DNA from: an uncultured virus (IMG/VR IMGVR_UViG_3300025018_000159)
Taxonomy: Duplodnaviria > Heunggongvirae > Uroviricota > Caudoviricetes
Reading direction: 5' to 3' (one strand)
Length of the DNA stretch: 20,000 nucleotides
IMG/VR virus record: IMGVR_UViG_3300025018_000159
Made by a program: the position numbers and the translations under genes. Shown one piece after another: positions 4,273-20,000 of this stretch (position 1 is its first letter; every line of letters starts with the position of its first letter). The notes beneath the pieces are model-generated. The model had not been told where the DNA came from. It saw only the letters and a list, made by a program, of their open reading frames with translations, and made no database searches.

Positions 4273-5204
4273 ACGTTCACCCTTGTTGCTGCAATCACCC
4301 TGCAATTCTCGCTCACGGACATGATGCGGGAGCCGCAGGAGCTTAGGCGAATATCCTGACCGACCCGCGTAGCGAAGTCGATGTTTTTCTTGCTAATCAG
4401 AAAGCTACACTTCCCGATGAATACCTCGCCCAACACCCCCTCCATGTCGTCGCCAATGTAAGTGACACAACCATCCTCAAAACGGAACTTTTCGCACTGG
4501 ATGGCGTGGAGGTCGTCGGCGAGATTCTTGACCAAACCGCAGTCCGTCCACTTGTCCTTGAAGAGGTTCGACGTGTCAATCATCTGCTCTGCGATACAGA
4601 GGCTGGTGAGTGAGCTTCCATCGGCGAAGAACACCTTAACCATGCGCCCGTCAGAACTAACCCCCGTCACCGGGGAGGTGAATTTGACGATTGCCTTGCA
4701 CGTCTCCAGGGGCAGGTTGAACTCCAGATCCTCATCCACACCACTGACGGCACTCACGATGATGACACTGTTTGTGGACTCCATCACCCCGTTTCGGAAA
4801 GACACACCCTGTGCCCATGGGCGAGGACTTTCAGGGTCAATCACGTCAGCACACAGCTTCAGCAGCCCCATGTCCAGTTCGCATGGTGTGGCCTGTCCCA
4901 GCACGTCCAGCGTAGCCATCTCATCCGCATCCAGATACGGGATCGAAAGCTTCTCCTTGCCCTCCTTGAGCACGAGCTTGTTCTTCTGGAGCGTGTAGGA
5001 GACAACCTTCCTGGGCTTGCGGAAAAACACCGCTGCCTTGGATGGGCTGAAGCAGGCTTTGATGTCCACCTCCACCGGAACCCGGATACAGAACGTCCCG
5101 CCGAAAGCGACCATGAAGCCGTCTTCGAGCTTCACCATTGAAGCGGTGGGGGAAGGTGCGGAAGGGTTGAGCGCAAGGGAGCAGAGGGCTAGGGCTGATT
5201 TCAT
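4269..5204 (-). CDS. Putative DNA polymerase beta-clamp-like processivity factor
   Basis: 311 aa, beta-rich and translationally coupled to the polymerase. PESPRPWAQGVSFRNGVMESTNSVIIV resembles the DnaN segment RPxLxGV...ATDG. Confidence 0.55.
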   Translation of the reverse strand: MKSALALCSLALNPSAPSPTASMVKLEDGFMVAFGGTFCIRVPVEVDIKACFSPSKAAVFFRKPRKVVSYTLQKNKLVLKEGKEKLSIPYLDADEMATLDVLGQATPCELDMGLLKLCADVIDPESPRPWAQGVSFRNGVMESTNSVIIVSAVSGVDEDLEFNLPLETCKAIVKFTSPVTGVSSDGRMVKVFFADGSSLTSLCIAEQMIDTSNLFKDKWTDCGLVKNLADDLHAIQCEKFRFEDGCVTYIGDDMEGVLGEVFIGKCSFLISKKNIDFATRVGQDIRLSSCGSRIMSVSENCRVIAATRVNV

Positions 5205-5434
5205 TTTGATGCAGTTTTTGGTCTTTCGATGTCGCCGGAGCTTGTAGCCTCCCAGTCTCCGCTATCCCAATTTTTGGTGATTGCGAAGCACTCGGGGTGC
5301 GCGTGACTGGTGCCGAATCCAATGCCGTTCACAAGCCACGTCCACCGCTCACAAGGTTCACCCTTGAGGATGAGTTCGTTACAGAGGCGGCACCTGTGGT
5401 CTTTGCGCGGGATGCACAAGGAGTCGGCTTTCAT
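5201..5434 (-). CDS. Small putative Zn-binding protein (CxxC...HxxC)
   Basis: RKDHRCRLCNELI...HAHPEC; ATGA overlaps at both ends. Confidence 0.7.
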   Translation of the reverse strand: MKADSLCIPRKDHRCRLCNELILKGEPCERWTWLVNGIGFGTSHAHPECFAITKNWDSGDWEATSSGDIERPKTASK

Positions 5435-5634
5435 TCCAGTATCAGGTCAAGCTCCGAACCATGCCTTGCCAGCGCGATCCCACCGACCACTTCCACGAGC
5501 CTGAAGTCACACCCCCTGAGTGTGGCTATCGCCTTGTCGAGTATCCCGGTTTCCTCCTTGCTGTATAGTTTGGTAATTAGGCGGTAGCCTAGTTTCTCTG
5601 CTTGTGCTTCTGTTACAGTATCGTATTTGTTCAT
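5431..5634 (-). CDS. Hypothetical protein (67 aa)
   Basis: Preceded by the recurrent AACGACAATG leader; coupled to the next gene. Confidence 0.75.
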   Translation of the reverse strand: MNKYDTVTEAQAEKLGYRLITKLYSKEETGILDKAIATLRGCDFRLVEVVGGIALARHGSELDLILE

Positions 5635-5654
5635 TGTCGTTGTTGTTATTGAGA

Positions 5655-7265
5655 TTATTTGTTGAAGTCACACCCAATCACATTGGAGTGCTCTCCGGCG
5701 ATGTCCACGCGGATGATGTCCGGGACACGAAGCTCGTCCTTTGCCCGTGCCGCAGCTTCCTCGCTGGTCTTTGGACAAGGTAGTTCCCCGCCCCTGAATG
5801 TCCACCAGTTTTCCCATCTATTTTTGCCGTAGGGCGCTTCAGGGAAAAGGGCTTCCTTGTGGGAACTCACACCTGTCATATACGTCACCCTGAAGTAGGG
5901 CGCAAGGGTCTTCTTGGCGATCTTTTCCTGGTAGAGGATACCCCGGACAGGGTGCTCGACGATGACGCAGGCGGGGGTGTCCGTGACTTTAAGAATAGCG
6001 TCGGTGCCAGCGGTCTTCTTGATGGTGGATGGAGGGGGGAACACATAACCGCAATCTGGGCACACCACAGTGCGTGTGTGAAGATAGGAGTAGCACTGAG
6101 GACACTCCTTAACTGGAGCCTCACCTTTCACTTCATCCCCCTTGCGCCTTGGCTGGGGAACCACTGGATCATTTACCGGGCCGAGACGGCGGGTATTCCC
6201 AGCAAAGTCAAGAACTAAGCCATCTTTTTTATTAGGTGCTCTTCTAGTTAGACGAACACAGCCTTGAACCCACAGCGCCACAGACTGGGTTGCCCGTGCC
6301 CACGCCAAGAGATCCAGCTCAGGAAAATCCCAACCACGGCCATAGAGGCCGCAGTTCACCAGCACCCTGTATTCCCCGGCACGGAAAGCAGCCTCTGACT
6401 GTTCCCTGAAGCGCATGTCGTCCTCACCGGACAACATGACTGCTGGGATGCCTTTCGAGTTGAAAAGCTTCGCCAACTTGTGGCCGTGCTTCACACCGGA
6501 GCTAAACACGAGCCAATGCTTCCTATCGTGACCGTAGCGGATGCACTCCTCGACCACAGCACGATTCAACTCATCGGTATCAGCTACGGCTTCCAGGGAT
6601 TTCTGATCGAACTCGCCGCCCTTCATGGCGACATTTTGAACGTCGATTTCAGTGCAGGCTTTCTTCGTGACCAGTGGGGAGAGGAAGCCGTTGTTTACAA
6701 ACCAGTTGAACTTCTCCGCCTTTGTCAAGTCGATAATTATCCTGTCCCACAGGTCTGAGTTTGTCAGGCAACCTGTCCCCCTACGATAAGGGGTCGCGGT
6801 AAAGCCAAGAATACGGACATTCGGGTTCAACTCTCTAACAGAACTGACTAGCTTCATGTATAACGTCTCCTCTTTCGGTGAGACCAGATCACACTCGTCG
6901 ATAAAGATCACGTTCCACTTTCCCAGCTCATTGATGCGCTTTGCCACAGACTGGATGCCTGCGAAGATTATGGGGTGTTTGGTGTCCCTGCGGTTGAGGC
7001 CGGAGGAATAGATCCCTGCCGGAGCCTGTGGCCAGAACTTCAGCATGGATTCGCAGTTCTGGTTGATGACCTTGGCGTCATGGACTAAGGAGAGCACGCG
7101 GGTTCCTGGCCACTTGGTGACAAGCTGCTTGATGACGCGATTCATCGTGTGGCTTTTACCTGTGCCACCGGGGGAGGCAACTACACCGTTGCCTGTATGT
7201 TCAAACAAGTGTTCGAAACAGGCGTTGTAGATGTCCTCTTGATATTGTCGGTCTTGATAGCTCAT
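5655..7265 (-). CDS. Superfamily 2 DNA helicase (RadD/YejH-like) with C-terminal Zn finger
   Basis: Q motif RQYQ, motif I SPGGTGKS, motif II IDECD, motif III TATPYR, and LDFAGNTRRLGP followed by CPQC...CPDC. Confidence 0.92.
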   Translation of the reverse strand: MSYQDRQYQEDIYNACFEHLFEHTGNGVVASPGGTGKSHTMNRVIKQLVTKWPGTRVLSLVHDAKVINQNCESMLKFWPQAPAGIYSSGLNRRDTKHPIIFAGIQSVAKRINELGKWNVIFIDECDLVSPKEETLYMKLVSSVRELNPNVRILGFTATPYRRGTGCLTNSDLWDRIIIDLTKAEKFNWFVNNGFLSPLVTKKACTEIDVQNVAMKGGEFDQKSLEAVADTDELNRAVVEECIRYGHDRKHWLVFSSGVKHGHKLAKLFNSKGIPAVMLSGEDDMRFREQSEAAFRAGEYRVLVNCGLYGRGWDFPELDLLAWARATQSVALWVQGCVRLTRRAPNKKDGLVLDFAGNTRRLGPVNDPVVPQPRRKGDEVKGEAPVKECPQCYSYLHTRTVVCPDCGYVFPPPSTIKKTAGTDAILKVTDTPACVIVEHPVRGILYQEKIAKKTLAPYFRVTYMTGVSSHKEALFPEAPYGKNRWENWWTFRGGELPCPKTSEEAAARAKDELRVPDIIRVDIAGEHSNVIGCDFNK

Positions 7266-8904: not shown

Positions 8905-9240
8905 TTGAAAGTGGGAGCACCTTACGGGTGCCAGTCGCCAGTCTTTCCTGAAGTCAGATCTCTCTAAACGCTAGAGCACTGCATCCCCCGTATTTCTACG
9001 GCTGAGGGGCTTCGAACCCCTTCTTTCACCAGATCTCAATCACCGAGCGGGAATCGAACCCGCCTGCTCTTTTATGGTTTTGAACCACACTCGCAGCCAC
9101 CATCCAAGGCGGGGAATCGAACCCCGAACACATCCAATTATGGACGATGACCGCGAGTGTGGTGACAGACTTTAACCCGTCTGTCAGGGGCTGATGACAA
9201 CCCGAATTTCCGGGACTATCGTGTTCAGCGGTTGTCTATT
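8905..9240 (-). ncRNA. Cluster of structured RNA elements with three tRNA T-arms but no complete tRNA
   Basis: T-arms CGGGG-TTCGATT-CCCCG (9110-9126), GCGGG-TTCGATT-CCCGC (9047-9063) and AGGGG-TTCGAAG-CCCCT (9005-9021). A 23-bp stem (9084-9106/9141-9163) has four G-U pairs on the - strand, and further hairpins are present. Confidence 0.7.
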
Positions 9241-9246
9241 TTGGGA

Positions 9247-9771
9247 TCACTCCCAAGGCTTCTTCTTGCCTTTTGTCGCAGGGGCGGGAGCTTCTTCCTC
9301 TTCGGTTTCCTCCTCTTCGGATTCTTCCTCTTCGGTCTCCTCCTCTTCCTCCGTTTCCTCCTCTTCCTCGTCACCGCTATACGGCTCGATGGAAGCGATG
9401 TTCACGAAGGTCTTGTCGCCCTTCTTGGTCTCCCTCGCCTCGATGACGACACAGGTGTCGATCAGCTTCTTGAGCTTGGCCTCGTTGAGGTCTCCGGTGT
9501 TGCCGGAAGCCTGCCACAGGGTGCGGAGTTCCTTCTCGGCGATCTCACGGCGCACGTCATTGTCCGCTTCAACAGCGAAGTATGTCTTGCACGTGAAGGT
9601 CTCACCGATGAGCGAGAGGCCGACCACAATGTGGAAGGATTTCCCGGTCGGGTCGGACTTGACTGGCAACCGCGCAGCGTCCGTGATTCTGTAGGGATGT
9701 GCCCCGAGCTTGATGTTGGAAGCTCCATCTGAGATGGTTTCCCCTTCGCCTTTCATTAGCCATTTAGCCAT
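9247..9771 (-). CDS. Putative single-stranded DNA-binding protein (DUF669-like) with acidic tail
   Basis: Start moved to ATG 9771 (MAKWLMKG), after an A/C-rich leader. OB-fold-like core, Glu-rich tract and KKKPWE terminus; in the same operon as a Sak4-like ATPase. Confidence 0.75.
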   Translation of the reverse strand: MAKWLMKGEGETISDGASNIKLGAHPYRITDAARLPVKSDPTGKSFHIVVGLSLIGETFTCKTYFAVEADNDVRREIAEKELRTLWQASGNTGDLNEAKLKKLIDTCVVIEARETKKGDKTFVNIASIEPYSGDEEEEETEEEEETEEEESEEEETEEEEAPAPATKGKKKPWE

Positions 9772-9823
9772 AGTATTGGTGTTGTTGTTGTTTTTTGTTT
9801 TTTGTTTTCCGTTAATGGAATTT

Positions 9824-10117
9824 TTATGCAGCCTGGAGCTTCCTCTTGGCAAGCTTGGCTGCGTGTTTTTTGCCGACATGCGGCATGTATTTGGAAGTGT
9901 GTCGGATGATCTCCTTATGCGGAAGAGGGCGACCTTCAGGGTCACGGAGGACTTGAAGGCTGTCGTGGTTACGCCACTCTTTCTTTCCCATCTTGTTGAT
10001 AGACCAGCCCCACAGCCCCTGCTTGCGGGCACGCTTGGAGTTGGTGTGGATAACTGTGATGTATGCTTTCCGTGGTTCTGGAAGCAGGGGTGTTTCTGTC
10101 GTTGCTGATGTGCTCAT
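9824..10117 (-). CDS. Basic hypothetical protein (97 aa)
   Basis: ATGA overlap with the exonuclease gene; Lys/Arg/His-rich. Confidence 0.7.
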   Translation of the reverse strand: MSTSATTETPLLPEPRKAYITVIHTNSKRARKQGLWGWSINKMGKKEWRNHDSLQVLRDPEGRPLPHKEIIRHTSKYMPHVGKKHAAKLAKRKLQAA

Positions 10118-10677
10118 TTGACTATTCCTTGTTCAATTAGGTGTTTGTGTATTCTAGCGCAGGCTCGAACGTCAGCGAGGGCGTCATGTGCCCCCGTAAA
10201 GTCCTCACCAAAGAAGTGGATATGTGCCTCACTCAGTTTCGGCCACTTGTAACCGCCCCGCTTGTTGCGGATCTTGCAGATGTTCGTTGTGGCGTCCATC
10301 GTGCAAAACTGCGGCTTGGTCTCAAGTATGTTCTCCCGATCCAGCCTGTCAACTTCAAATCCAACTAATTTTCTATCGAAGTTGATATTGTGGGCGACTA
10401 CCTGCTCGGCTACCCGGCAGAGGTTGGAGAACATGGCCATTGCCGTGAGTATGGGTATTCCGAACCGGGAAGCTTTCTCCGTGGAGATTCCGTGGACAGC
10501 CGCAGCCCCTGAGCCAACCTCCCAGCCTGTGGGCTTGATGATCGTGTTCATGGAGGCCAGTTCACCTTCCTCGTCATCGACAAGGATGGCGGCAAGCTGG
10601 ACGATGTGGGGCTGTTCTGCGAGTGTTCCGCTATTGGCAAATCCAGTCGTCTCGGTATCAAAATACACCCGGATCAT
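10114..10677 (-). CDS. DEDDh 3'-5' exonuclease (DnaQ/epsilon-like)
   Basis: Exo I FDTETTG, Exo II AHNINFD, Exo III AHDALADV. Confidence 0.93.
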   Translation of the reverse strand: MIRVYFDTETTGFANSGTLAEQPHIVQLAAILVDDEEGELASMNTIIKPTGWEVGSGAAAVHGISTEKASRFGIPILTAMAMFSNLCRVAEQVVAHNINFDRKLVGFEVDRLDRENILETKPQFCTMDATTNICKIRNKRGGYKWPKLSEAHIHFFGEDFTGAHDALADVRACARIHKHLIEQGIVK

Positions 10678-11462
10678 CCCTGACGTGCCTCCTTCACAGC
10701 AGCGTCAAAGGCTTCCCACGTGAGTTCAATCTCCGCCTCAAGGCGTCCGTAGACACCACGACCGCCACCAGGGTGTGCCGGGGACTTGCGGGTGAAGAGG
10801 TAGTGACCCTCTTCGTCGTTGTCCACAACCTTGGCCTTTACGTTTTTCTTGCTGAAGCCCTGGGACTCAAGGCGGATACCGATACTCTTATTTGCGAAGC
10901 CAATGAAGTCAGCCCAGCGAACGAGGTCGTTACCGACTTTCTTGTTGACATCAAACTGGTATTGGTCGTAGCTCTCACGCTCGGGGTCGTGGAATTTCTC
11001 AACCTTGACGTGGCCTATGAGAATCGAGCCGATACCGCACTCACTCCGGAGGTAGTCGAGGATTGTGGTGAGCTTGCCCCACTTGTTGCGGACAGCTTCC
11101 GTTCCAGCACCAAATCCTCCGCCGATCTCGGAGACCAGTGCAACCCCAGCCTCTTGGCAGCAGGACTCGGCGATGAGCACGTCAAGTGTGGTGGCGGAGT
11201 CAATCACCACTGTCTTGTATTTCGTATCACCCTCGGCGAGGACTTCGAGTGCTGCGACCAGCTCATCAAAGGACTCTGCGACCGGGAAACGATCCACATC
11301 AATGTCGTCGATACCTTCCTCGCCCCGGACGGGGATGAAGACGCAGTTAGGGGCACCAGCGGCGAAGGTGGACTTGCCGATTTTCTCAACCCCGAGGATA
11401 ATCATCCGGGGTGGGCGGATCACCTTTTTGTTGGTGATGGATTTAAGGATCATTTTAGACAT
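10674..11462 (-). CDS. Sak4-like AAA_24 ATPase / single-strand annealing protein
   Basis: Walker A GVEKIGKST, Walker B VVIDS, LIGH, WADFIGF. Confidence 0.88.
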   Translation of the reverse strand: MSKMILKSITNKKVIRPPRMIILGVEKIGKSTFAAGAPNCVFIPVRGEEGIDDIDVDRFPVAESFDELVAALEVLAEGDTKYKTVVIDSATTLDVLIAESCCQEAGVALVSEIGGGFGAGTEAVRNKWGKLTTILDYLRSECGIGSILIGHVKVEKFHDPERESYDQYQFDVNKKVGNDLVRWADFIGFANKSIGIRLESQGFSKKNVKAKVVDNDEEGHYLFTRKSPAHPGGGRGVYGRLEAEIELTWEAFDAAVKEARQG

Positions 11463-11494: not shown

Positions 11495-11903
11495 TGGTGG
11501 AGCTAAGGGGAGTCGAACCCCTGTCCGTAACCGCGTTATTAACATTTTCTACAAGCTTAGACCTTTATGGAGTCACTCAAGGGCGTCCGGTTAGGGACGC
11601 CTCCACCACCCGGTCTTTACGGCGACGGGTTCCGTTGTTTGCCTCACTGTTTCAGGTCATCCGCCCGGAGGCGCGGCTTAGGATGATCTTGCCCGGTTTG
11701 TTTCTCACCGCAGCGCGGGCGTTTCGGTGAGCGTGTTTTGCTTAGGCTACGAGAGCAAGCTCACCCTGAGGTGCGCTGCGTCCGAAGATTCCGCGAATGA
11801 CGTTGATGCCATTTGAACTTTGAGCGGCTTTTTAAGAGGCCAGCCGATCAACCTCTACTTGCTTATGTTAATTTTTCAGTTACGTCGAAACCAGTATAGC
11901 CCC
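11495..11903 (-). ncRNA. ssrA: tmRNA (409 nt)
   Basis: 5' GGGGCTATACTGGTTTCGAC and 3' GGACAGGGGTTCGACTCCCCTTAGCTCCACCA. Acceptor stem GGGGCTA/TAGCTCC has the G3-U alanine identity pair and an encoded CCA. P2 helices CGTAACTG/CGGTTACG and ATTAACAT/ATGTTAAT; pk1 GAGG/CCTC plus CGGCT/AGCCG; tag ORF present. Confidence 0.97.
11742..11810 (-). other. tmRNA tag reading frame: (A)GINVIRGIFGRSAPQGELALVA*
   Basis: Resume codon GGC inferred after pk1 and the TTCAAAT context; the frame ends GCT CTC GTA GCC TAA. Confidence 0.8.
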
Positions 11904-12551: not shown

Positions 12552-12776
12552 ATGTCCGAAAACGCTACAGCAGTCATGCGGAGACTGCGAGAACAAATTT
12601 CCAAGCCCGAGATCAATCTCTTGGCACTGGCACGGGGGAGCAAAGTCAGCTACGACAAGCTGCGCCGTCTGAAGCTTGATGATAGTCCGCTATCTGTCGC
12701 CGACGCAGAAACCCTTCACATCTTCCTAACAGGAAAAACCTTTATCGCCACACCTGATGCTCCACAACATTCCTGA
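12552..12776 (+). CDS. Small helix-turn-helix DNA-binding protein (Cro/XRE-like)
   Basis: INLLALARGSKVSYDKLRRLK has an HTH pattern; sits at the divergence point upstream of the primase. Confidence 0.7.
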   Translation: MSENATAVMRRLREQISKPEINLLALARGSKVSYDKLRRLKLDDSPLSVADAETLHIFLTGKTFIATPDAPQHS

Positions 12777-15027
12777 AGAACTCACCCGCCTTGGCCAATG
12801 GGTTACGTTCGATATTACCGAAGACGGTAAGAAGATCCCGTATATTCCCGGCACGAACGACATGGCCGCTTCCAACCGTCCCCGCGACTGGCGCTCATTC
12901 CGCGCAGCCTGCAAGGATGTCGAGGAAGGCAAACGCCAGCACGTCGGCTTCGTCGTCACCACACGAGACCCCTATGTCTTCATCGACTTGGATGACCCCG
13001 AGGACGAGGATCAGAAAGCTGTCTTCAAGCGCCTCGATACCTACGCCCAGCTCAGTGTCTCCGGCGAGGGTGCCCACCTGATTGCCGTCGGAAAGTTCAA
13101 GGGTAAAGGCAAGCACCCTGCGTCTCCGGCGGCGGGGTTGTTCCAGGATAACAGGTTTGTGCTTATGACCGGGGAAATTCTCCAGAACAGATCTACTATA
13201 AAAGCAGTAGATGACTGCGATCTCCAAAGCATCCACACATGGCTCGGCGGCGGCAAGGACTATGAGCTTGAGGATCTCGTGGAATATGCTTCGAAAATCC
13301 CCGACCAAACGGTGGTCGACCTGGGTTGTGACCGCTTCACCAAATTCAACGATCTCTGCAACGGCAAGTGGCAGCAGTTCGATGAGTATCATGGAGACCA
13401 CAGCACAGCAGACCATGCCTTCCTTGCCATGCTCTGCGACATCACCGAGTCAAACGACCAAGTGCGCTTTCTCTTCTCCATCTCAGGCATGTGGTCTCCT
13501 GAGCGTGCAGCCAAGAAGTCAGGTCACGGACTTGCGGGGTATGTTGACCGGACGATCCGCAAGATCCGGGGAAACCAGCAGCGTGAGCGCCGTTCCCTCG
13601 AAGAGTGCCCCCTATCCTTCGGCGAAAGAAAAGTGTTGACAGAGATCCACCCGGCTACCCCGGAAAAGGGAAAATGCGACCTGATCGAGAGCTTGCCTGA
13701 CGGTCTGGTGAAAGACATCGCACGCTACTCCTTCGAAACCTCCTACATGCCTCTTCAGGAGGCTTCGATCCTCGTGGGCTTGCAGGTTGTCTCCGTGCTC
13801 TGTGGCCGGGGCTACCTGACCCCCACGAAGTCCGGCCTGAACATGTGGCTCATCCTTGTGGGTGGAACATCCTGCGGAAAGGACGAATACCAGAACGGTG
13901 TCAAGCGGATTCTGAACAAGATTGCCAAGTCGCATCCCAGCGTCCTGAAGATCTTCGGCGGAGAGATCGTTTCCGGGCCAGGCATCGAGACTGTGTTCCA
14001 GGATACATTCCGCTACTGCTCATATATCCCTGAGTTCGGCGACACGTTCAAGCTGCTCGCCAACCCACAGGCACCCGATTATGTCAAGACCCTTTCACGC
14101 GGACTCCTCAACTCCTACAACTCGGCTGGTGTCGGCGGCACGAGCGAGGGACGGCGCAAGGCTCAGGGGACAGACGAGAAGGTGCGTGTGGAACGCCCCT
14201 GTCTCTGCGTCGCCGGAGAGGCCACCCCCGAATCACTCTACGGAAACATGACCACGAGGGAGCTGTCCACAGGTTTCCTCCAAAGGTTCATGCTCCTCAA
14301 CGTGCCACTGACCTCGTGGTCGATGATCGAGAACGAGAACCACGGCGCGGAGCCTCCGAAGGCTCTCGTGGATCGTCTGGCGAACCTGGCCATGATGATG
14401 GACTCTGCCGACGTGAGCAACAGCTTCCAGACCGTAGAGTCGTCACCTGAGGCCGCAGATCTCCTGAAGCGTTACCGGAACCACAAGCGGAAGGAAATCA
14501 TGGAGTGCCCTGACGGACTTTCGAAGAAGGAAGTCATCAACCGCGCAGGACTCAAGGCTCTGCGTCTCGCTTCACTTCTGGCTGTCGGTTCCGATGAGCA
14601 CTCCCCCCGCATTGGGCTGGAACACGCCCAGTGGTCAATCGACTTCACTGAGAAATGTGACAACGAGATCCTAGCCAAGTTCGATTCCGGCGAGGTTGGC
14701 TCCGGCCAAGTCAAGCAGGAAAATGAGATAATTCAGGCTTGCAAAAACGTGGCGGCTATGAAAGTCGGGATGAGGCAATCGCTTGGGATGAGCCGGAAGG
14801 TCGCCCTTGAGAGCACAATGGTGCCGCTGGCCGTAATCAAGGCGAAGGTCGTGAACAATGCCGTCTTCGCTTCGGATCGTCTGGGAGCTGTCTCAGCCTT
14901 CGACAAATGCGTGGACTCTATGGTCAAGGCCGGGGTGTTTGTCCGGGTGTCGGAAACCCTCGCAGCAGACAGTTATAACCACCTGAAGGGGGTGTTGCTG
15001 TGCGTGAGTGGGAAGTATCTGAAGTGA
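12757..15027 (+). CDS. Primase-polymerase (AEP/NrS-1-like) fused to a DUF3987-like helicase domain
   Basis: QWVTF, KIPY, FIDLD, SVSGEGAH, helix-bundle motif DHSTADHAF, P-loop GGTSCGKD, GEATPE and GFLQRF. Confidence 0.85.
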   Translation: MLHNIPEELTRLGQWVTFDITEDGKKIPYIPGTNDMAASNRPRDWRSFRAACKDVEEGKRQHVGFVVTTRDPYVFIDLDDPEDEDQKAVFKRLDTYAQLSVSGEGAHLIAVGKFKGKGKHPASPAAGLFQDNRFVLMTGEILQNRSTIKAVDDCDLQSIHTWLGGGKDYELEDLVEYASKIPDQTVVDLGCDRFTKFNDLCNGKWQQFDEYHGDHSTADHAFLAMLCDITESNDQVRFLFSISGMWSPERAAKKSGHGLAGYVDRTIRKIRGNQQRERRSLEECPLSFGERKVLTEIHPATPEKGKCDLIESLPDGLVKDIARYSFETSYMPLQEASILVGLQVVSVLCGRGYLTPTKSGLNMWLILVGGTSCGKDEYQNGVKRILNKIAKSHPSVLKIFGGEIVSGPGIETVFQDTFRYCSYIPEFGDTFKLLANPQAPDYVKTLSRGLLNSYNSAGVGGTSEGRRKAQGTDEKVRVERPCLCVAGEATPESLYGNMTTRELSTGFLQRFMLLNVPLTSWSMIENENHGAEPPKALVDRLANLAMMMDSADVSNSFQTVESSPEAADLLKRYRNHKRKEIMECPDGLSKKEVINRAGLKALRLASLLAVGSDEHSPRIGLEHAQWSIDFTEKCDNEILAKFDSGEVGSGQVKQENEIIQACKNVAAMKVGMRQSLGMSRKVALESTMVPLAVIKAKVVNNAVFASDRLGAVSAFDKCVDSMVKAGVFVRVSETLAADSYNHLKGVLLCVSGKYLK

Positions 15028-15031
15028 GACC

Positions 15032-15053
15032 GGGGCAATAAAAAAAGCCCCCG
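15032..15053. terminator. Probable terminator between convergent transcription units
   Basis: GGGGC...GCCCC hairpin just after the primase stop; on the - strand CGGGGGC is followed by T7 (15046-15040). Confidence 0.5.
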
Positions 15054-15130
15054 AATTACGCATCGTCGAGAGGCGCGGGAGGTCTGCTGGTTTAGTATGC
15101 AGAAAAGCCACGCCTTGACAGGGTGGGGCT

Positions 15131-15182
15131 TCCGAACGGTCGATGCACGGGACGCTATGCGCCTGGGATCTCCTTGTTAGCG
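15131..15182 (+). other. attC-like site E (52 bp, compact/degenerate)
   Basis: TCCGAAC-GGTCG-ATGCACGG...CTGGGAT-CTCCTT-GTTAGCG; imperfect arms. Confidence 0.6.
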
Positions 15183-15301
15183 ACGAGAACATCCTTGTGT
15201 TCGTTGCATCTGGGGCGGTATTCATCATCGCCGCGCATCCAGCTTGTTTGGATTTCCACTTTGCCGACCGCTTTATTCTCGCATAGTTGGCATTTTGGCA
15301 T
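15155..15301 (-). CDS. Cassette ORF, 48 aa CxxC...CxxH putative Zn-binding protein (not in the ORF track)
   Basis: MPKCQLCENKAVGKVEIQTSWMRGDDEYRPRCNEHKDVLVANKEIPGA*; the frame is open for a further 42 codons upstream. Confidence 0.65.
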   Translation of the reverse strand: MPKCQLCENKAVGKVEIQTSWMRGDDEYRPRCNEHKDVLVANKEIPGA

Positions 15302-15385
15302 TCCGTTGGGGTGTCCCTTGTATTTCTGGAATCTGCTGATTCGCGGGTATTTTCGATTACTCCTAGTCTTTAGGTTGTTCGGTTT

Positions 15386-15470
15386 CGCTAATAAATCGCC
15401 GTATCCAACGGCGGCCTGCCCTCTTATTTATTCGGAGTCTTTCGCGCCGTGGATAGGCTCGGCGTTGTGG
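15386..15470 (+). other. attC-like site D (85 bp; AAC changed to AAT in R'')
   Basis: CGCTAAT-AAATC-GCC[G]TATC-CA[A]CGGCG...CGCCGTG-GATAGGC-TCGGC-GTTGTGG; brackets mark unpaired extra bases. Confidence 0.8.
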
Positions 15471-15766
15471 CCAAGAATCGGCACGTATTTGTTGAGCGTG
15501 CGCGTCTCGATTTGGTTGAGCGGTTTCCATTCTGCGAAGTCACCAGCCATCCGGCCTTGCCCTTCGTTATCCAGCTCCCCTTGGAGATCGGACTCCGGAC
15601 ACCATTTCAGCCCGCCATAGCCGATCCACTTCTGGCGGCACTTCGCTACCGCTGGGCGGGGCATCTTGTAGGCGCGGCAGTATTCGGCCAGTTGGTCGAG
15701 CCAGCTTTTATATGAGTCACCGAAAAGCAGGATCGAGCCATCGGGGAAGGTTGCTTTGATTGTCAT
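15428..15766 (-). CDS. Cassette ORF, hypothetical protein (112 aa)
   Basis: Intact ORF inside cassette 15465-15882; its stop lies within attC D. Confidence 0.8.
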   Translation of the reverse strand: MTIKATFPDGSILLFGDSYKSWLDQLAEYCRAYKMPRPAVAKCRQKWIGYGGLKWCPESDLQGELDNEGQGRMAGDFAEWKPLNQIETRTLNKYVPILGHNAEPIHGAKDSE

Positions 15767-15797
15767 TTTATCGGGCGTTTTCGTTGTTTCGTAAGAT

Positions 15798-15888
15798 CCA
15801 CAACAAGCGTCTGGTGGTGACGCCGTTGAAGCATTCTGATTAAATTCGGGGCTCTTTTTCCGGCGTCACCACAGACGGAGCGTTACGC
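15798..15888 (+). other. attC-like site C (91 bp)
   Basis: CCACAAC-AAGCG-TCT[G]GTGG-TGACGCCG...CGGCGTCA-CCACAGA-CGGAGC-GTTACGC. Confidence 0.88.
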
Positions 15889-16241
15889 CTATAAACTCCG
15901 ACGACCATGAAGAGGTCGTGACTCTCGCCAATTTTCATCCCTTCCCATCCAGTCGGCACATGACCGAAAGTTACTTCGTATTCACCTCTCTCGATCCGCA
16001 GCTTTGCGCGGCGTTTCAACTCCTCGGGGGAGTATTGAGCAATCTCGTTTTCCAAGAATTGCACCGCCGCGCCGAGCGTTACATCCCCCTGTCGCACTCG
16101 ATACCTTTCCCTTACTTTTCGGTATCCACGCTCTAGGGCAATTCGCTCAGCGTAACAAGACATCGCACTACAATCCCCACTCGGAGTCTTGGGAGGGGCG
16201 GCGATTTCAGGCGGGGGAGTATCGTTTGTGGTATCAGTCAT
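15840..16241 (-). CDS. Cassette ORF, hypothetical protein (133 aa)
   Basis: ATG 16241 (MTDTTND) lies in the loop of attC B; the stop lies in the loop of attC C. Confidence 0.75.
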   Translation of the reverse strand: MTDTTNDTPPPEIAAPPKTPSGDCSAMSCYAERIALERGYRKVRERYRVRQGDVTLGAAVQFLENEIAQYSPEELKRRAKLRIERGEYEVTFGHVPTGWEGMKIGESHDLFMVVGVYRRNAPSVVTPEKEPRI

Positions 16242-16276
16242 TTTCGTGTGTGGATGTGTGGATTTTATCGTTCGAT
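16150..16276 (+). other. attC-like site B (127 bp)
   Basis: GCGTAAC-AAGAC-ATC[G]CAC[T]ACA[A]TCCCCAC...GTGTGGATGTGTGGAT-TTTATC-GTTCGAT. Confidence 0.8.
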
Positions 16277-16471
16277 TTACCAATCCCAGTCGATGAACTC
16301 AGCCCATGCGTAGGCTTGGATCTTCTCGAACGTGGTTTCCGGCATGACTTCTTTTCCGTCGTATTCGAGGCCGAAGACCCCGTGACAGTAGCGAATAATT
16401 TGAGTGCGCCCGTCGTGCGCTTCCCAGAAGACCTTTCGGCCAGGTGTTTGTCCTTGTAGTTCATTTTTCAT
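16277..16471 (-). CDS. Cassette ORF, hypothetical protein (64 aa)
   Basis: The TAA stop abuts the core of attC B exactly; composition is more protein-like than the overlapping 76-aa frame. Confidence 0.65.
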   Translation of the reverse strand: MKNELQGQTPGRKVFWEAHDGRTQIIRYCHGVFGLEYDGKEVMPETTFEKIQAYAWAEFIDWDW

Positions 16472-16494
16472 CGGTGTTTTGGGGTGATTCGGAA

Positions 16495-16594
16495 ATCGAA
16501 CAAGCGGATCGTGGCGACCCGATCCCGCTCCCCACGGTAGATTTATGTAGGCTTTGAGGGTGCGGGATTGGTCGCCACATCCTTGACGTTCTGC
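16495..16594 (+). other. attC-like site A (100 bp)
   Basis: ATCGAAC-AAGCG-GAT[C]GTGG-CGACC[C]GATCCCGC...GCGGGATTGGTCG-CCACATC-CTTGAC-GTTCTGC; canonical 5-nt and 6-nt spacers and an extra C at position 4 of L''. Confidence 0.9.
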
Positions 16595-16639
16595 TTAAGA
16601 TGTGCCGCGAGGCAGTCCGTGGCGACGGCGAGGAGGCCG

Positions 16640-16807
16640 TCACATTTCAAATCTCTTCACAGAGATAATCTTCGATAGGTGCTGGTAATTCTTCAATTTC
16701 TCCCTAGCCTTCTTGATTGACTTGGCCTGCACTTCAGTTTCCACGGTCTGTCCGTTGCTAAGTGCAACCACACATACCCATGTCACTACTGCGATATTTT
16801 TATCCAT
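16640..16807 (-). CDS. Hypothetical protein (55 aa; not in the ORF track)
   Basis: MDKNIAVVTWVCVVALSNGQTVETEVQAKSIKKAREKLKNYQHLSKIISVKRFEM*; 8-nt overlap with the upstream gene. Confidence 0.7.
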   Translation of the reverse strand: MDKNIAVVTWVCVVALSNGQTVETEVQAKSIKKAREKLKNYQHLSKIISVKRFEM

Positions 16808-17144
16808 GATTCAGGTTTCTGAAATACTCATCCCGCTTTTCCCTGACTTCCTTTTTGGTCTTACCTCTGGCGATCACTCTACCTTTGAAGGTAAACTTGA
16901 ACGGGAGGTCGTAACCAATGTAGCGGTCTGGGTTTTCAGCAGCCTTGCTGGCAGCGGTTTTTTTCCTGCGGACAGGTGCGTTCAGCGAAGCGAAAAACGC
17001 ATCCCTCGCTTTCTCAGCGGCTTTGCCGGAGACCGTGCCGAGGGATTTGCGCCTCTGCTTGTCGTCCACATAGTAGAGGGCGTAGGTGTAGCCGTTGACT
17101 TGGACTAAGGCTGTGCCAAGGGAGGTGTCGGGTATTTCAGTCAT
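16800..17144 (-). CDS. Basic hypothetical protein (114 aa), possibly DNA-binding
   Basis: Start moved to ATG 17144 (MTEIPDT), overlapping the previous stop; two beta-helix-like basic segments (RRKSLG...AEKARD; IARGKTKKEVREKRD). Confidence 0.7.
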   Translation of the reverse strand: MTEIPDTSLGTALVQVNGYTYALYYVDDKQRRKSLGTVSGKAAEKARDAFFASLNAPVRRKKTAASKAAENPDRYIGYDLPFKFTFKGRVIARGKTKKEVREKRDEYFRNLNHG

Positions 17145-17334
17145 GGTTGGGTTTGAGTTTCTTTTTCTGGCATGAAGGGCAGTTGTCCCTGTGGGTGTCG
17201 TTGCCTTCTTCGCGGTCGCCCGCAAGGTAGAGCCAGCGACCACACAGGGATTTGCCACCGCACCCCACGTAATGGAACTTGCTGCGTGGGTTGAGCGGTT
17301 GGGGGTTCCACCATCCTGTAAGTGTGTCACTCAT
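17137..17334 (-). CDS. Small Cys/His-rich hypothetical protein (65 aa)
   Basis: MSDTLTGWW...KFHYV..KSLCGRW...NCPSC; start moved to ATG 17334. Confidence 0.75.
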   Translation of the reverse strand: MSDTLTGWWNPQPLNPRSKFHYVGCGGKSLCGRWLYLAGDREEGNDTHRDNCPSCQKKKLKPNHD

Positions 17335-17539
17335 GCGTGTTGTCGATAAGTTTGATGCCGGAAATGACGGAGAGATTTTTAGAGTAATGTTTTGATTTAA
17401 CGCCTCCATCCTCCCACGGATCAGCCCACGTTTTAAGTTGCATGGTATCTTTTCCTCGATCCACAAAAAGAACGAAAACGCTGTTAATTCCTACAGGAAT
17501 GCGCTCCAGCCGGAGCTTTGGGCGGTTGAAGAGTCTCAT
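17327..17539 (-). CDS. Hypothetical protein (70 aa)
   Basis: Part of the chain of overlapping small - strand genes. Confidence 0.65.
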   Translation of the reverse strand: MRLFNRPKLRLERIPVGINSVFVLFVDRGKDTMQLKTWADPWEDGGVKSKHYSKNLSVISGIKLIDNTHE

Positions 17540-17699
17540 GGCTTCTTGGCTTTCTGTTCTTGGACGTAGGACTTGCTACCACACGGAAATGGCCCCTCTG
17601 GAAGCTTCCTCGGCCAAGGCCATGCTGGTAGAAATTTTGGCCTCTTCTTGTGGTCGTAGCACTGAGTCTTGTCGCCGCTGATAAATGTAGGAACACGTA

Positions 17700-17996
17700 T
17701 CAGTTGTAAACGATCACGCCCTCCAGTTGTCCGGGCGTCCACCCGAGTGCCTTGTTGCGGGTTGCTGCGATGTCGCGGGCTTCGGCTTCCGTGAGGTGAC
17801 GGAGACCCCCCGTGTGGTCACAGAATGCCGTGTAGTTCCATTCGGTGTTCGGTGCCCCGTTGCGTGCCACAGCGTGAACCGTGTCCGGCTTGTCGCTGGT
17901 GTTGTAGCGTTCGAGGGGAGTGCCCTTGACTTGGCTACGGGATTTGGAGACCACTTTAAAGTGGCTAGTGGGTTGCTTTTTAGTTTTGGTGCTCAT
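17700..17996 (-). CDS. Hypothetical protein (98 aa)
   Basis: ATG follows the hairpin-TTTTGGGGTG module; plausible composition. Confidence 0.75.
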   Translation of the reverse strand: MSTKTKKQPTSHFKVVSKSRSQVKGTPLERYNTSDKPDTVHAVARNGAPNTEWNYTAFCDHTGGLRHLTEAEARDIAATRNKALGWTPGQLEGVIVYN

Positions 17997-18205
17997 GTTC
18001 TTTGTAGGTTACACCCCAAAACCCGCTGGCTCTTGCGAACTCAGCGGGTCATTTGTGTTAGGGGTTGTTCTCCCCTTTATTCAGTTAATCGTTTTCATAT
18101 TACTTCCTCCTTTCACCCCAAAACCCTCCCCCGCGTCTTGGCAGGGAAGGGTGGGACGGCTCGTGAGGATAAGTCACAAGCTAACGCTGACGTTGTTGTG
18201 GCAGA

Positions 18206-18553
18206 TCAGGCAGATTCTTTGGGTTGACGTTGGTTTGTTGGCAGTAACCACAGGGAAGAGTAACCTTTGCCGTAGAGGGCATCCAGCGGGACGAGCTGCT
18301 GATTCCGGTAAGATCGCGTCCCCAGTTCGCCGGAGGGCAGGACGATAACCTTGCGGAACCAAGCAGGCCACTTTTTGGTGTATCGCCACAGATAGAGACC
18401 CGGCCTGCGGGGTTCCCGCTGACCCCATGCCCAGCCCTCAGGCGCGGTATCGAACTCCGGGTATTCACTCCCGTGGTTGTCGGCTTCCGTGTGAACGGAA
18501 GTCATCAGCTTGTAGAGGTGCTGGTGCGGTTTCAGTTTGGTTTTGGTTGTCAT
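18206..18553 (-). CDS. Hypothetical protein (115 aa)
   Basis: AACGACAATG leader; contains PRRPGLYLWR. Confidence 0.75.
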   Translation of the reverse strand: MTTKTKLKPHQHLYKLMTSVHTEADNHGSEYPEFDTAPEGWAWGQREPRRPGLYLWRYTKKWPAWFRKVIVLPSGELGTRSYRNQQLVPLDALYGKGYSSLWLLPTNQRQPKESA

Positions 18554-18590
18554 TGTCGTTGGCGTGATGGTAGTTGAATTGTCCCGAAGG

Positions 18591-18929
18591 TCAAATTGTT
18601 TTCTTCAGTATTTTTGTGATGACTGAGAGGTGGTTGATGATCCTGTTTTTGATCTTTTCCGGGTCTTCCCCGTGCCAGACCACAGGGCTGAGGAAGTGGA
18701 ACTTGTCCGTCCACAGCGGGATCAGTTCCACACGGTGATGGTTCAGCTTGAAGGAATACTCCCTGCCGTCAGGCAGTTTGAAACAGTCGCTTGAGACGGT
18801 GGCTCCCAGCAGGCGTCCGGCTTGGATGAGCTGTGAGTGGACTTCGAGGGTCTTGCGCTGAAGGTTGCTATTCTTCCTGCGGTTCAAGTTGAAAGGCTTG
18901 CGGTTGCGGATGTTGTCGATGAAGTTCAT
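18591..18929 (-). CDS. Hypothetical protein (112 aa)
   Basis: ATGA overlap with the upstream gene. Confidence 0.75.
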   Translation of the reverse strand: MNFIDNIRNRKPFNLNRRKNSNLQRKTLEVHSQLIQAGRLLGATVSSDCFKLPDGREYSFKLNHHRVELIPLWTDKFHFLSPVVWHGEDPEKIKNRIINHLSVITKILKKTI

Positions 18930-19201
18930 TGTTTCTCTAGGTGTGATTTCAGTTCTTGGCTATAGTTGGTAATTACTTGCCCCTCTCCCACAAGTGCTAT
19001 ACCTAAGGTTCCGTGGCTGGTCTTCACCACGGCGAGTTTGTCCTGCACGACCCTGTGCTTGATCCACTGGCGACGTTGCCTGTCCGTCCTGCCCGGTGCG
19101 GCCACAGCCCCTGAAGGGTAGACCACACCGATGAGTTGGACTTTTGCTTGGAGTGCCACGAGGATGGGTGCGACTTTCCGGTTCCAGTTTATGGGGTTCA
19201 T
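18926..19201 (-). CDS. Hypothetical protein (91 aa)
   Basis: Start moved to ATG 19201 (MNPINW); ATGA overlaps at both ends. Confidence 0.75.
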   Translation of the reverse strand: MNPINWNRKVAPILVALQAKVQLIGVVYPSGAVAAPGRTDRQRRQWIKHRVVQDKLAVVKTSHGTLGIALVGEGQVITNYSQELKSHLEKQ

Positions 19202-19527
19202 TGTGATATGCGGTAAAGTTCCCTCCGGCTGTTTGACGCCCAAACCTCCACAGTCTGTCCGGCGTAAACCCGCTTCCAGTCCTTGGCCTCAGGGATCTTG
19301 ATCCCGTCGTTGGCATAGCCTAGGCTGGTGTAGTGAAGTTGGATGTGCTCCAAGCTGGGGTTCAGCCTGTTGCGCCTCCAAAGGTCGAAGTCCCTGGCCT
19401 TGATCTCCGCAACCTCGTGGATGCGTAGACCTTCCCGCTCGATGACGGTGTAGGCTTCCGCAACCGTGGGTGCCGCTGCGACTTGGTTGAGGCCGGAGGC
19501 CGTGTAGTGGAATGCTGCTAGTTTCAT
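19198..19527 (-). CDS. Hypothetical protein (109 aa)
   Basis: The likely start is ATG 19527 (MKLAAFHY), overlapping the TGA of the repeat protein. Confidence 0.75.
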   Translation of the reverse strand: MKLAAFHYTASGLNQVAAAPTVAEAYTVIEREGLRIHEVAEIKARDFDLWRRNRLNPSLEHIQLHYTSLGYANDGIKIPEAKDWKRVYAGQTVEVWASNSRRELYRISQ

Positions 19528-20000
19528 GGCTTGAGGTTTTTGAGGGCTGCAATGAGCCAGTTCTTTTTGACAACGGCTTCTTGTTGTGTTTCTGACATTG
19601 CTGCTGACCATGCTGCTGACCATGCTGCTGACCTTGCTGCTGACCTTACTGCTGACCATGCTGCTGACTCTGCTGCTGACTCTGCTGCTGACCTTACTGC
19701 TGACCATGCTGCTGACCATGCTGCTGACTCTGCTGCTGACCTTACTGCTGACCTTGCTGCTGACCTTGTTGCTGACCATGCTGCTGACTCTGCTGCTGAC
19801 CTTACTGCTGACCTTGCTGCTGACCTTGTTGCTGACCATGCTGCTGACTCTGCTGCTGACCTTACTGCTGACCATGCTGCTGACCATGCTGCTGACTCTG
19901 CTGCTGACCTTACTGCTGACCATGCTGCTGACCTTGCTGCTGACCTTGTTGCTGACCATGCTGCTGACTCTGCTGCTGACTCTGCTGCTGACCTTACTGC
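19524..20000 (-). CDS. Ser-Ala-Ala-X tetrapeptide repeat protein, 5'-truncated
   Basis: The frame from 20000 reads AVR SAAE SAAE SAAW SATR SAAR...SAAMSETQQEAVVKKNWLIAALKNLKP*, and its TGA forms an ATGA overlap with the next gene. Confidence 0.8.
   Translation of the reverse strand, partial: AVRSAAESAAESAAWSATRSAARSAAWSAVRSAAESAAWSAAWSAVRSAAESAAWSATRSAARSAVRSAAESAAWSATRSAARSAVRSAAESAAWSAAWSAVRSAAESAAESAAWSAVRSAARSAAWSAAWSAAMSETQQEAVVKKNWLIAALKNLKP
19601..20000. repeat. 12-bp tandem repeat (C/T)TGCTGAC-(CATG/CTTG/CTTA/TCTG), at least 33 units, running off the window
   Basis: Directly visible; includes an exact 60-bp duplication (19741-19800 = 19801-19860). Confidence 0.97.

Follow-up and report, generated by a model that had tools for sequence, protein, structure and literature searches.

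An integron-type array of four attC sites and small inverted cassettes in an uncultured aquifer phage

Introduction

A CALIN consists of at least two attC sites lying close together, with no intI nearby. In class 1 integrons, the cassette ORFs are read from the integron promoter. A second kind of modular arrangement is formed by the promoter-early stem-loop (PeSL) cassettes of T4-type phages, which are bounded by near-identical repeats acting via homologous recombination. Integron components, including 17 CALINs, have been described in 21 phages (Qi, Rajabal, Ghaly, Tetu, Gillings 2023, Front Microbiol, PMC9892861). According to the same report, five of six phage attC sites assayed recombined with IntI1, and methyltransferases were noted among the cassettes. 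Integron parts and CALINs in phages were already published in that 2023 paper, and the locus described here is a further case. It lies in a window of 20 kb, the whole stretch of DNA that was analysed, from an uncultured aquifer phage.

Results

Phage context of the array

The array is preceded on the left by genes for primase, a DUF7173 protein, tmRNA (found by Rfam, not by ARAGORN), Sak4, an exonuclease, a Cas4-like nuclease, a helicase and PolA, and a processivity factor is also among the phage replication genes of the window. The PolA is 44% identical to the PolA of Variovorax, Stenotrophomonas and Pseudomonas phages. The right side contains only small ORFs, which are arranged as an overlapping operon and match almost no family; this operon is compatible with a phage, though no proof of one. 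Judged by its genes, the window is evidently phage DNA, and PolA, helicase and primase together agree with the earlier placement of the array in a phage accessory region. Relatives of this phage were found neither by blastn of 12700-19000 against phages, nor by a search for the exact 28-nt pattern in viral contigs, nor by a primase search in viral and metagenome contigs.

No integrase had been seen in the window before, and none was detected here: tblastn with bona fide IntI over the 20 kb gave a best E-value of 1.5, and a scan of 30 ORFs gave no match to PF00589. The 20-kb window has neither an intI gene nor a recognisable attI, which would lie side by side next to the array in a complete integron. 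The locus has the composition of a CALIN, with four attC sites within 1.2 kb and no IntI in the 20 kb, and since the surrounding DNA is evidently that of a phage, it is a CALIN in a phage.

Table 1 Features of the array and its left neighbour. Scores are for covariance model R1, whose E-values are rough owing to a shortened calibration
Feature	Coordinates	Strand	Description
Phage primase	12757..15027	+	left neighbour of array; phrog_3022 (E 1.6e-121), DUF3987
Site 1	15131..15182	+	not attC; its right end G/TTAGCG (15176-15182) is the left junction of the array
Cassette 1	15177..15464	+	288 bp; bounded by G/TTAGCG and the G of GTTGTGG; attC at right end
Site 2, attC of cassette 1	15386..15470	+	R1 35.7 bits, E 3.5e-8; fold z -1.9
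Cassette 2	15465..15882	+	418 bp; cores GTTGTGG (15464-15470) and CCACAAC (15798-15804), 7/7
Site 3, attC of cassette 2	15798..15888	+	R1 46 bits, E 5.9e-11; fold z -4.2/-4.6
Cassette 3	15883..16270	+	388 bp; recurs in other contexts with the same ends
Site 4, attC of cassette 3	16150..16276	+	R1 21.8 bits, E 2e-4; fold z +1.1/+1.5; degenerate
Cassette 4	16271..16588	+	318 bp; cores GTTCGATTT/AAATCGAAC, 9/9
Site 5, attC of cassette 4	16495..16594	+	R1 40.3 bits, E 2e-9; fold z -4.1/-4.8 (computed on 16485-16594, 10 nt beyond the left end of the site)
ORF1	15155..15301	-	48 aa, CxxC...C..H; 16 relatives in representative library
ORF2	15428..15766	-	112 aa, phrog_32581 (PHROG E 3.8e-10), function unknown; 38 homologues
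ORF3	15840..16241	-	133 aa from ATG 16241; two homologues
ORF4	16277..16471	-	64 aa, function unknown; 11 homologues, 66-89% identity

Architecture of the attC sites

The first-pass annotation had proposed five attC-type palindromes sharing one geometry. Two inverted box pairs in the order R''-L''...L'-R', with spacers of 5 nt and 5/6 nt and a variable centre, are formed by four of these five sites. Covariance model R1 was trained on 34 attC sites taken from other loci, of which some adjoin bona fide IntI, with the sites of the window excluded. It recovers sites 2, 3, 4 and 5 as attC, and its matches start and end at exactly the coordinates assigned in the first-pass annotation. The four sites score 21.8-46 bits, compared with 11.1 bits for the next best match in the 20-kb window. 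As a control, R1 scores the class 1 attC sites of aadA2 and dfrA12 at 39.1 and 31.3 bits, and our box scanner recovers all three class 1 attC sites with 0 mismatches on the cassette sense strand.

The boxes and cores are as first annotated, and the boxes pair at all sites except site 1. In sites 2, 3 and 5, the 8-nt box without its fourth base is the exact reverse complement of the 7-nt box (0 mismatches); for example, the boxes GCCGTATC/GATAGGC of site 2 pair perfectly once base 4 is omitted. Site 4 has one mismatch. The extrahelical base in L'', the 8-nt box, which renders an attC hairpin asymmetric and bears on strand choice, is visible as a bulge in the predicted folds. Sites 3, 4 and 5 possess both triplets AAC...GTT. 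Site 2 has the triplets AAT...GTT, its R'' being CGCTAAT, with AAT where AAC is expected. The four attC sites differ in length (85, 91, 127 and 100 nt), and their boxes are strongly unlike each other.

Folding as single-stranded DNA bears out part of the earlier proposal. Sites 3 and 5 fold clearly better than shuffled sequences (z -4.1 to -4.8), site 3 forming a 15-bp stem with a single bulged G, and site 2 reaches a z of -1.9, whereas sites 1 and 4 are no better than shuffles (z +0.7 to +1.5). In site 4, only the R and L boxes conform; the 89-nt centre is unfolded and encodes the N-terminus of ORF3. A simple geometry scan (at most one mismatch, both strands) gave six matches, a count not above chance (3.2 ± 1.8 in 200 shuffles). 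The three matches on the + strand are all attC sites, namely 3, 4 and 5, and the three on the minus strand all lie in the primase gene with one mismatch each.

Site 1 does not belong to this group. It scores 6.7 bits under R1 (E 2.4) and only on the minus strand, its boxes do not pair, and its fold is no better than shuffles (z +0.7/+1.2); the score, the wrong strand, the unpaired boxes and the fold together rule it out as an attC. It was also considered as an attI and rejected, since site 1 and the left flank have no similarity to the attI regions of the four arrays compared (L012, L017, L036 and L038).

Sites 2-5 are real attC sites, far beyond chance. The palindromes lie between small genes, and they might instead be ordinary intergenic hairpins of a phage operon, such as terminators or RNA-processing sites, chained by coincidence. 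One terminator-like hairpin does occur in site 2 (15413-15397, minus strand), and attC sites are thought to hold weak terminators, as cited in PMC9892861. However, terminator-like sites are not enriched in the window (8 versus 10 expected), and ordinary hairpins account neither for a geometry fixed at 7-5-8...7-5/6-7 nor for the bulged base or the exactness with which the cores are chained. The R1 matches and the recurrence of cassette 3 with G/TT ends (see below) contradict such an origin, which we regard as extremely improbable. Given the attC identity of the four sites, their folded bottom strands would be the substrates recombined by an IntI.

Chained cores and cassette boundaries

Each right core had been described as complementary to the left core of the next site, and this chaining is confirmed. 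In all three pairs of adjacent attC sites in the window (GTTGTGG/CCACAAC, GTTACGC/GCGTAAC and GTTCGAT/ATCGAAC), the cores are complementary at 7/7 positions, and the last pair extends to 9/9 (Table 1). At the left junction, GTTAGCG is complementary to CGCTAAT (15386) at 6/7 positions. The same rule is followed by the window, seven related arrays and the class 1 control taken together: among their 44 adjacent attC pairs, 39 are complementary at 7/7 positions and 42 at 6/7 or more. The cores depart from GTTRRRY, as noted previously.

The array ends on the right with the R' core GTTCTGC of the cassette 4 attC, for which no GCAGAAC partner exists downstream, and no partner was found near the array for the terminal cores GCAGAAC and GTTCGGA. 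The four cassette intervals derived from crossover at G/TT stand, and the two ends of cassette 3 (15883 and 16270) are verified through contigs in which this cassette has other neighbours.

Inverted cassette genes

The first-pass annotation assigned one small gene to each cassette. Four ORFs are indeed present, and two features had been overlooked: the ORFs are inverted with respect to the attC top strands, and three of them extend beyond the crossover point. Every ORF is read from the minus strand, the attC top strands being on the + strand. In the usual, though not defining, cassette layout, which the class 1 control exhibits, the ORF is on the attC top strand and upstream of its attC. ORF1-3 read over the crossover into the neighbouring attC, so that excision would change their C-termini.

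ORF1 leaves cassette 1 across the core (A41-N42, encoded by GCT AAC) and stops inside site 1. Its relatives have 63-77 aa, including an N-terminal extension that is still encoded in frame upstream in the window, without a start codon (AGG, versus M in the relative P0052). The homology to P0052 ends at N42. In ORF2, residues 101-112 are encoded by the cassette 1 attC; its homologues cease to align near residues 97-101, and even those with 84-85% identity have different tails. The AF2 model of ORF2 has a mean pLDDT of 85 and values of 48-49 for residues 101-112. ORF3 starts within its own attC, passes the core GCGTAAC (read as R-N) and terminates within the cassette 2 attC, in its loop. It is 92% identical to its homologue P0039, including the N-terminus, and the tail differs directly after ...RRNA. 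ORF4 lies entirely within cassette 4, with its stop codon abutting the core. The tails of the ORF1, ORF2 and ORF3 homologues thus part right after the in-frame AAC, a divergence that lends indirect support to cassettes 1 and 2, and also 3, as units.

Homologues of ORF2 are located between attC sites in the IntI arrays L012 and L017 and in a Planctomycetaceae MAG (L030). The arrays that served as sources for R1 are real integrons: in L012, the IntI (345.7 bits for TIGR02249, cutoff 265) is divergent from the array and lies on a 203-kb contig with housekeeping genes, and the IntI of L017 is truncated. The ORF4 family was not found in viral contigs. As to the function of the cargo, Pfam, PHROGs and PADLOC yielded a single assignment, phrog_32581 for ORF2; no usable match came from the ESM Atlas, and Foldseek comparison of the ORF2 model with the PDB gave no match at an E-value of 0.001 or below.

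An alternative unit, composed of an ORF and its own downstream attC with crossover at G/TT on the minus strand, was considered since ORF1-3 end inside the downstream site. It is ruled out on three grounds: the orientation of the 8-nt box is known from the class 1 control, the viral contig L036 has ORF3 with the upstream and not the downstream attC, and the tails diverge just after AAC in near-identical homologues.

Recurrence of cassette 3 in other genomes

Cassette 3 is present in L036, an otherwise unrelated viral contig, with 97.5% identity over 395 bp. The identity is confined to 15880-16274 of the window, ending at most 4 nt from both predicted G/TT points, and the attC of the cassette is also recognised in L036 (459-585, 22.8 bits). 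In addition, contigs from four public sequencing runs (X2, X3, X4 and X8), three from aquifers and one from a cold spring, match 15880-16272/16274 and then diverge, and run X8 alone holds two right-hand contexts besides that of the window. The expectation that cassette boundaries fall at G/TT in other contexts is therefore borne out for cassette 3; no further contexts were found for cassettes 1, 2 and 4. Among the contigs aligned with the window, there were no joints skipping a cassette and no circle junctions; contigs alone are uninformative on excision. From these alignments, cassette 3 evidently moves as a unit, and it is the one cassette whose mobility they document.

In L036, cassette 3 is in canonical layout beside a 341-aa IntI-type integrase. 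The best family of this protein is integron integrase, with 243.9 bits over positions 2-313 of the 315 in the profile. This score falls short of the curated cutoff for TIGR02249, 265. The protein is 39% identical to the IntI of L012. The presence of cassette 3 both here and in the window is in line with the idea that the phage has an IntI of its own outside the 20 kb, the array being the distal part, or a second array, of a complete phage-borne integron. The phage contigs L036, L037 and L038 indeed encode IntI-type integrases beside attC sites and phage structural or replication genes. Nevertheless, the side where intI and attI would be expected, upstream of the top strand, is occupied by the primase gene. 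Moreover, apart from cassette 3, the window shares with L036-L038 one weak protein match (L037, 40% over 70 aa, E 2.4e-5) and no other DNA similarity. An IntI belonging to the phage itself is therefore distinctly unlikely.

Discussion

The segment 15177-16594 is very probably a CALIN of four genuine cassettes in a phage, moved by an IntI-type recombinase acting in trans. The array is bordered by the primase gene, at its 3' end, and by a leftward operon of small genes. A cassette consists of one small ORF and one attC. On the top strand, the order is R'', 5 nt, the 8-nt L'' with its extra base, the centre, the 7-nt L', 5/6 nt and R'. With the + strand as the attC top strand, the minus strand would be the recombining bottom strand. 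An IntI-type tyrosine recombinase very probably made the cassettes and moved them as units, cutting folded attC hairpins at G/TT and so leaving every R' core complementary to R'' of the attC that follows. Its source may have been a host chromosomal integron, or a phage-borne IntI like that beside cassette 3 in L036, and the cassettes may have been inserted one by one in this phage. With all four ORFs on the bottom strand, what moves would be an attC followed by an ORF in the sense direction. The cassette genes are co-oriented with the leftward genes of the phage and so presumably transcribed together with them. ORF1-3 span the crossover, with AAC read as Asn, and thereby gain a context-dependent C-terminal tail from the attC of the neighbour.

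The cassettes could also be genuine without an IntI having built the array in the phage. A ready-made stretch of an integron, from a bacterial chromosome or another phage, might have entered the phage in a single event, through illegitimate or homologous recombination, and now be inert cargo. Off-target or illegitimate recombination is the route that Qi et al. 2023 (PMC9892861) propose for phage CALINs. The window has neither an IntI nor an attI-like sequence, its site 1 is not an attC, and the degenerate site 4, the AAT in site 2 and the lost start codon of ORF1 suggest decay, all of which would suit such cargo. The edges of the array speak against it: its left boundary falls exactly at G/TT, where TTAGCG matches R'' in the first attC, and its right boundary is exactly that of a complete attC. 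The four attC sites are very unlike each other, whereas a single chromosomal array can hold near-identical ones (L015). Furthermore, cassette 3 circulates in several contexts in the same habitats and is carried by an IntI-bearing phage contig. We consider acquisition in one step unlikely, and favour assembly by an IntI-type recombinase acting in trans.

A wider reading, conceivable and offered tentatively, is that groundwater phages and bacterial chromosomal integrons draw on one pool of 'inverted' cassettes, whose attC precedes the ORF when read in the sense direction, moved by phage-encoded IntI as in L036 and L038. If so, integron recombination would be a routine means of swapping early or accessory genes among some phage lineages and with host arrays, and the inverted layout may permit expression in phage operons and silence in bacterial arrays.

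The window presents an unusually clean phage accessory region that appears to have been assembled by integron recombination, with boundaries resolved to a few bases. One of its cassettes occurs in several genomes, among them a phage contig that itself encodes an IntI-type integrase. The locus links the mosaicism of phage genomes with the cassette pool of integrons in environmental bacteria. The four attC sites and two candidate integrases provide substrates for the study of cassette traffic between phages and hosts. In addition, the consistent inversion of the ORFs and the C-terminal tails supplied by neighbours are features that cassette annotation pipelines may mishandle.

Among known systems, the sedentary chromosomal arrays L012 and L030 resemble the window in the geometry of their attC sites, in the chaining of their cores and in the consensus nnnGAAC AAGnC ... 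C GTTCnnn, and they contain ORF2 homologues as cassettes in the same inverted orientation. These arrays are longer and lie beside intI on bacterial DNA, whereas the window has four cassettes with phage flanks and neither intI nor attI. Class 1 cassettes (dfrA12 and aadA2, AB571791.1, locus L029) resemble the window in box geometry, extra base and G/TT cores, and their attC sites score 31-39 bits under the environmental model R1, the same range as the sites of the window. They differ in that the class 1 ORFs are on the attC top strand, while those of the window are on the bottom strand and its cores deviate from GTTRRRY. The PeSL cassettes likewise comprise small phage accessory genes bracketed by stem-loops and shuffled as modules. 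By contrast, the sites of the window are unlike in sequence, have only their structure in common and carry the footprint of site-specific recombination.

A close resemblance exists to the phage CALINs in PMC9892861, which according to that paper are also clusters of attC sites without integrase, with small cassettes, in phage genomes. A term search of its main text found no passage on an inverted orientation of ORF versus attC. Compared with those CALINs, the window stems from an aquifer phage that is uncultured and had no match in the phage collection searched, all its cassette ORFs are inverted relative to the attC, and it documents chained cores, one cassette common to unrelated phage contigs, and homology of a cassette gene to cassettes in IntI-bearing bacterial arrays.

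The cassette array and an independent attC model

The first-pass annotation proposed an integron-type cassette array at 15131-16594, in which five palindromic sites (sites 1-5) delimit four cassettes with one small gene each (ORF1-ORF4). All of its boxes and cores are present where it placed them. Dropping the fourth base of the 8-nt box leaves an exact reverse complement of the 7-nt box in sites 2, 3, and 5; the boxes of site 4 have one mismatch, and those of site 1 do not pair. The chaining of the cores also holds, each right core being complementary to the next left core at 6/7, 7/7, 7/7, and 9/9 positions along the array. Folded as single-stranded DNA, sites 3 and 5 are far better than their shuffles (z about -4 to -5; the site 5 segment included 10 further nt on its left side), site 2 shows a modest gain (z -1.9), and sites 1 and 4 fold no better than shuffles. 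A plain geometry scan of both strands gives a count that is not significant (6 versus 3.2 +/- 1.8 in shuffles), and its three plus-strand matches are exactly sites 3, 4, and 5.

ORF2 has 38 homologues. Seven of their loci (L012, L014, L015, L016, L017, L019, and L030) contain dense site arrays of the same geometry with zero mismatches. Among them, the 203-kb bacterial contig L012 carries housekeeping genes as well as an integron integrase (IntI; TIGR02249, 345.7 bits versus the curated cutoff of 265) divergent from the array, L017 carries a truncated IntI, and L030 comes from a Planctomycetaceae MAG. The far end of the L012 array has a gene for a group II intron reverse transcriptase/maturase (4990-6216, +). 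The covariance model R1 was built from an alignment of 34 sites from ORF2-homologue loci, with the window sites left out, and searched against the window with filters off. It identifies four attC sites (see table), and the next match reaches 11.1 bits. Site 1 (15131-15182) does not hold as an attC, its score being just 6.7 bits, on the opposite strand. In the class 1 integron used as positive control (L029, containing intI1, dfrA12, and aadA2), the box scanner finds three sites with zero mismatches, and R1 scores the attC sites of aadA2 and dfrA12 at 39.1 and 31.3 bits.

Features of the window
Feature	Coordinates	Strand	Remarks
Family A DNA polymerase	2296-4305	minus	with processivity factor
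tmRNA gene	11495-11903	minus	RF00023, full-length, 126.7 bits, E 1e-49
Large primase	12757-15027	plus	
abiF RNA motif, sub-threshold	15047-15082	minus	RF03085, 32.8 bits (gathering score 37), E 0.016
attC (site 2)	15386-15470	plus	R1, 35.7 bits
ORF2	15428-15766	minus	phrog_32581
attC (site 3)	15798-15888	plus	R1, 46 bits
attC (site 4)	16150-16276	plus	R1, 21.8 bits
60-aa GTG ORF	16461-16643	minus	
attC (site 5)	16495-16594	plus	R1, 40.3 bits

When the window is taken together with the class 1 control and seven related arrays, right core and next left core are perfectly complementary in 39 of 44 adjacent attC pairs and complementary at >=6/7 positions in 42; the window contributes 3/3 pairs. 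Such chained cores are the footprint expected of circular cassettes joined at G/TT. The window array is a genuine integron cassette array lacking an integrase (CALIN) in a phage genome.

Cassette 3 in other contexts

An ORF3 homologue with 92% identity is found on L036, a 6.2-kb viral contig whose sole similarity to the window is a 395-bp stretch (97.5% identity, window 15880-16274). This stretch matches the proposed cassette 3 interval, 15883-16270, but for a few additional bases, which are core positions common to the neighbouring sites. Contigs of four public sequencing runs (three aquifer, one cold spring) also match cassette 3, with the similarity breaking off at exactly 15880 and 16272/16274. 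In the cold-spring run, cassette 3 has two right-hand contexts besides that of the window, and the window's own context is also present, without differences, in run X2. No joints or circle junctions occur in the run contigs aligned to the window, a search of contigs only that has no bearing on excision.

Inverted ORFs with borrowed tails

In the class 1 control, the sense strand of the cassettes is the strand reading the 8-nt box first. In the window this is the plus strand, whereas ORF1-ORF4 are all encoded on the minus strand; the window cassettes are therefore inverted. ORF2 homologues in the bacterial arrays show the same inversion. The reading frames of ORF1, ORF2, and ORF3 cross the core, where AAC forms an Asn codon, and stop within the neighbouring attC. 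In their homologues the protein is kept up to this Asn and then diverges abruptly, at 84-85% (ORF2), 92% (ORF3), and 79% (ORF1) identity. The AlphaFold model of ORF2 (mean pLDDT 85) is confident except for residues 101-112. Ownership of the downstream attC by each ORF is rejected, as L036 shares ORF3 with the upstream attC and not the downstream one. No function of the cargo proteins emerges from the searches made: Pfam, PHROGs, and PADLOC give no match beyond the phrog assignment of ORF2, the ESM Atlas gives no usable hit, and Foldseek against PDB with the ORF2 model gives none at E <= 0.001.

The frame upstream of ORF1 (15302-15385, minus) encodes ...SNRKYPRISRFQKYKGHPNG, matching the N-terminus of the ORF1 homologue P0052. 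The start-codon position of P0052 is AGG in the window, so that ORF1 may be 5'-truncated or a pseudogene. The 60-aa GTG ORF covers the attC of cassette 4 from end to end; it is probably no gene.

In the arrays of L012, L014, L017, L019, and L030, many cassettes have their longest ORF on the bottom strand of the attC, as read from longest-ORF calls, which are unreliable in GC-rich DNA; some of these ORFs have Pfam support (MT-A70, C5 methylase, HTH). The phage-like contig L013 (RecT, ExoVIII, integrase, portal) has a plus-strand DNA methyltransferase gene (13476-14084) between minus-strand attC-model matches of 36.5 and 21.4 bits (13452-14122), and this cassette is thus also inverted. L013 also contains a frameshifted ORF2 homologue with ends resembling the window cores. 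In L001, an IMG/VR phage contig with portal, large terminase, and repressor, an ORF2 homologue is followed by two weaker minus-strand attC-model matches of 27.8 and 25.3 bits (8918-9849).

Phage context and IntI-type integrases

The window is phage DNA. Besides the polymerase and primase, it encodes a helicase, a Cas4-like nuclease, a VRR-NUC nuclease, an RNase T-like exonuclease, and a Sak4-like annealing protein. The polymerase shares 44% identity with its counterparts in Variovorax, Stenotrophomonas, and Pseudomonas phages of ~42 kb. The region 15155-20000 contains small minus-strand ORFs only, many of them overlapping. No relatives of the phage itself were found by blastn of 12700-19000 against phages, with a 28-nt pattern in viral contigs, or with the primase in viral and metagenome contigs. 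The tmRNA gene, which has no ARAGORN call, is located in the replication module, flanked by the Sak4-like gene and a DUF7173 gene. The sub-threshold RF03085 match falls between the array and the stop codon of the primase gene.

As the first-pass annotation remarked, IntI is absent from the 20-kb window. The left flank of the array bears no resemblance to four attI regions (L012, L017, L036, and L038), and the terminal cores of the array have no partners near it.

L036 contains genes for a small terminase, a head-tail connector, and a 341-aa integrase (1188-2213). The best family of this integrase is the integron integrase (243.9 bits, just below the cutoff of 265; aligned to profile positions 2-313 of 315), and its identity to the L012 IntI is 39%. 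The two attC sites of L036 (459-585 and 847-933, minus) show the canonical divergent layout, and at 49 nt from the start of the integrase there is a G/TTGTGT that matches the first of them. Two more phage contigs, L037 and L038, belong to this type. The integrase of L037 (172-1194) is identical and is accompanied by podovirus head and tail genes, and L038 has a 77% identical integrase (10001-10987) and two attC sites. In these three IMG/VR contigs, the IntI-type genes adjoin attC sites, terminase or primase genes. The contigs appear to carry complete small integrons within phage DNA, and their integrase might also be the phage's own integration enzyme.

Comparison with known phage integron components

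Qi et al. 2023 (PMC9892861) describe 17 CALINs, with integron components in 21 phages overall, and recombination of 5/6 phage attC sites by IntI1. The kind of array is therefore already known. The earlier interpretation as an integron cassette array is supported, except that site 1 falls away and its novelty was overrated. What the present array adds are the base-level cassette boundaries, a cassette that occurs in otherwise unrelated phage contigs as well as in several other contexts, the link to IntI-bearing bacterial arrays, and the consistent inversion of the ORFs.
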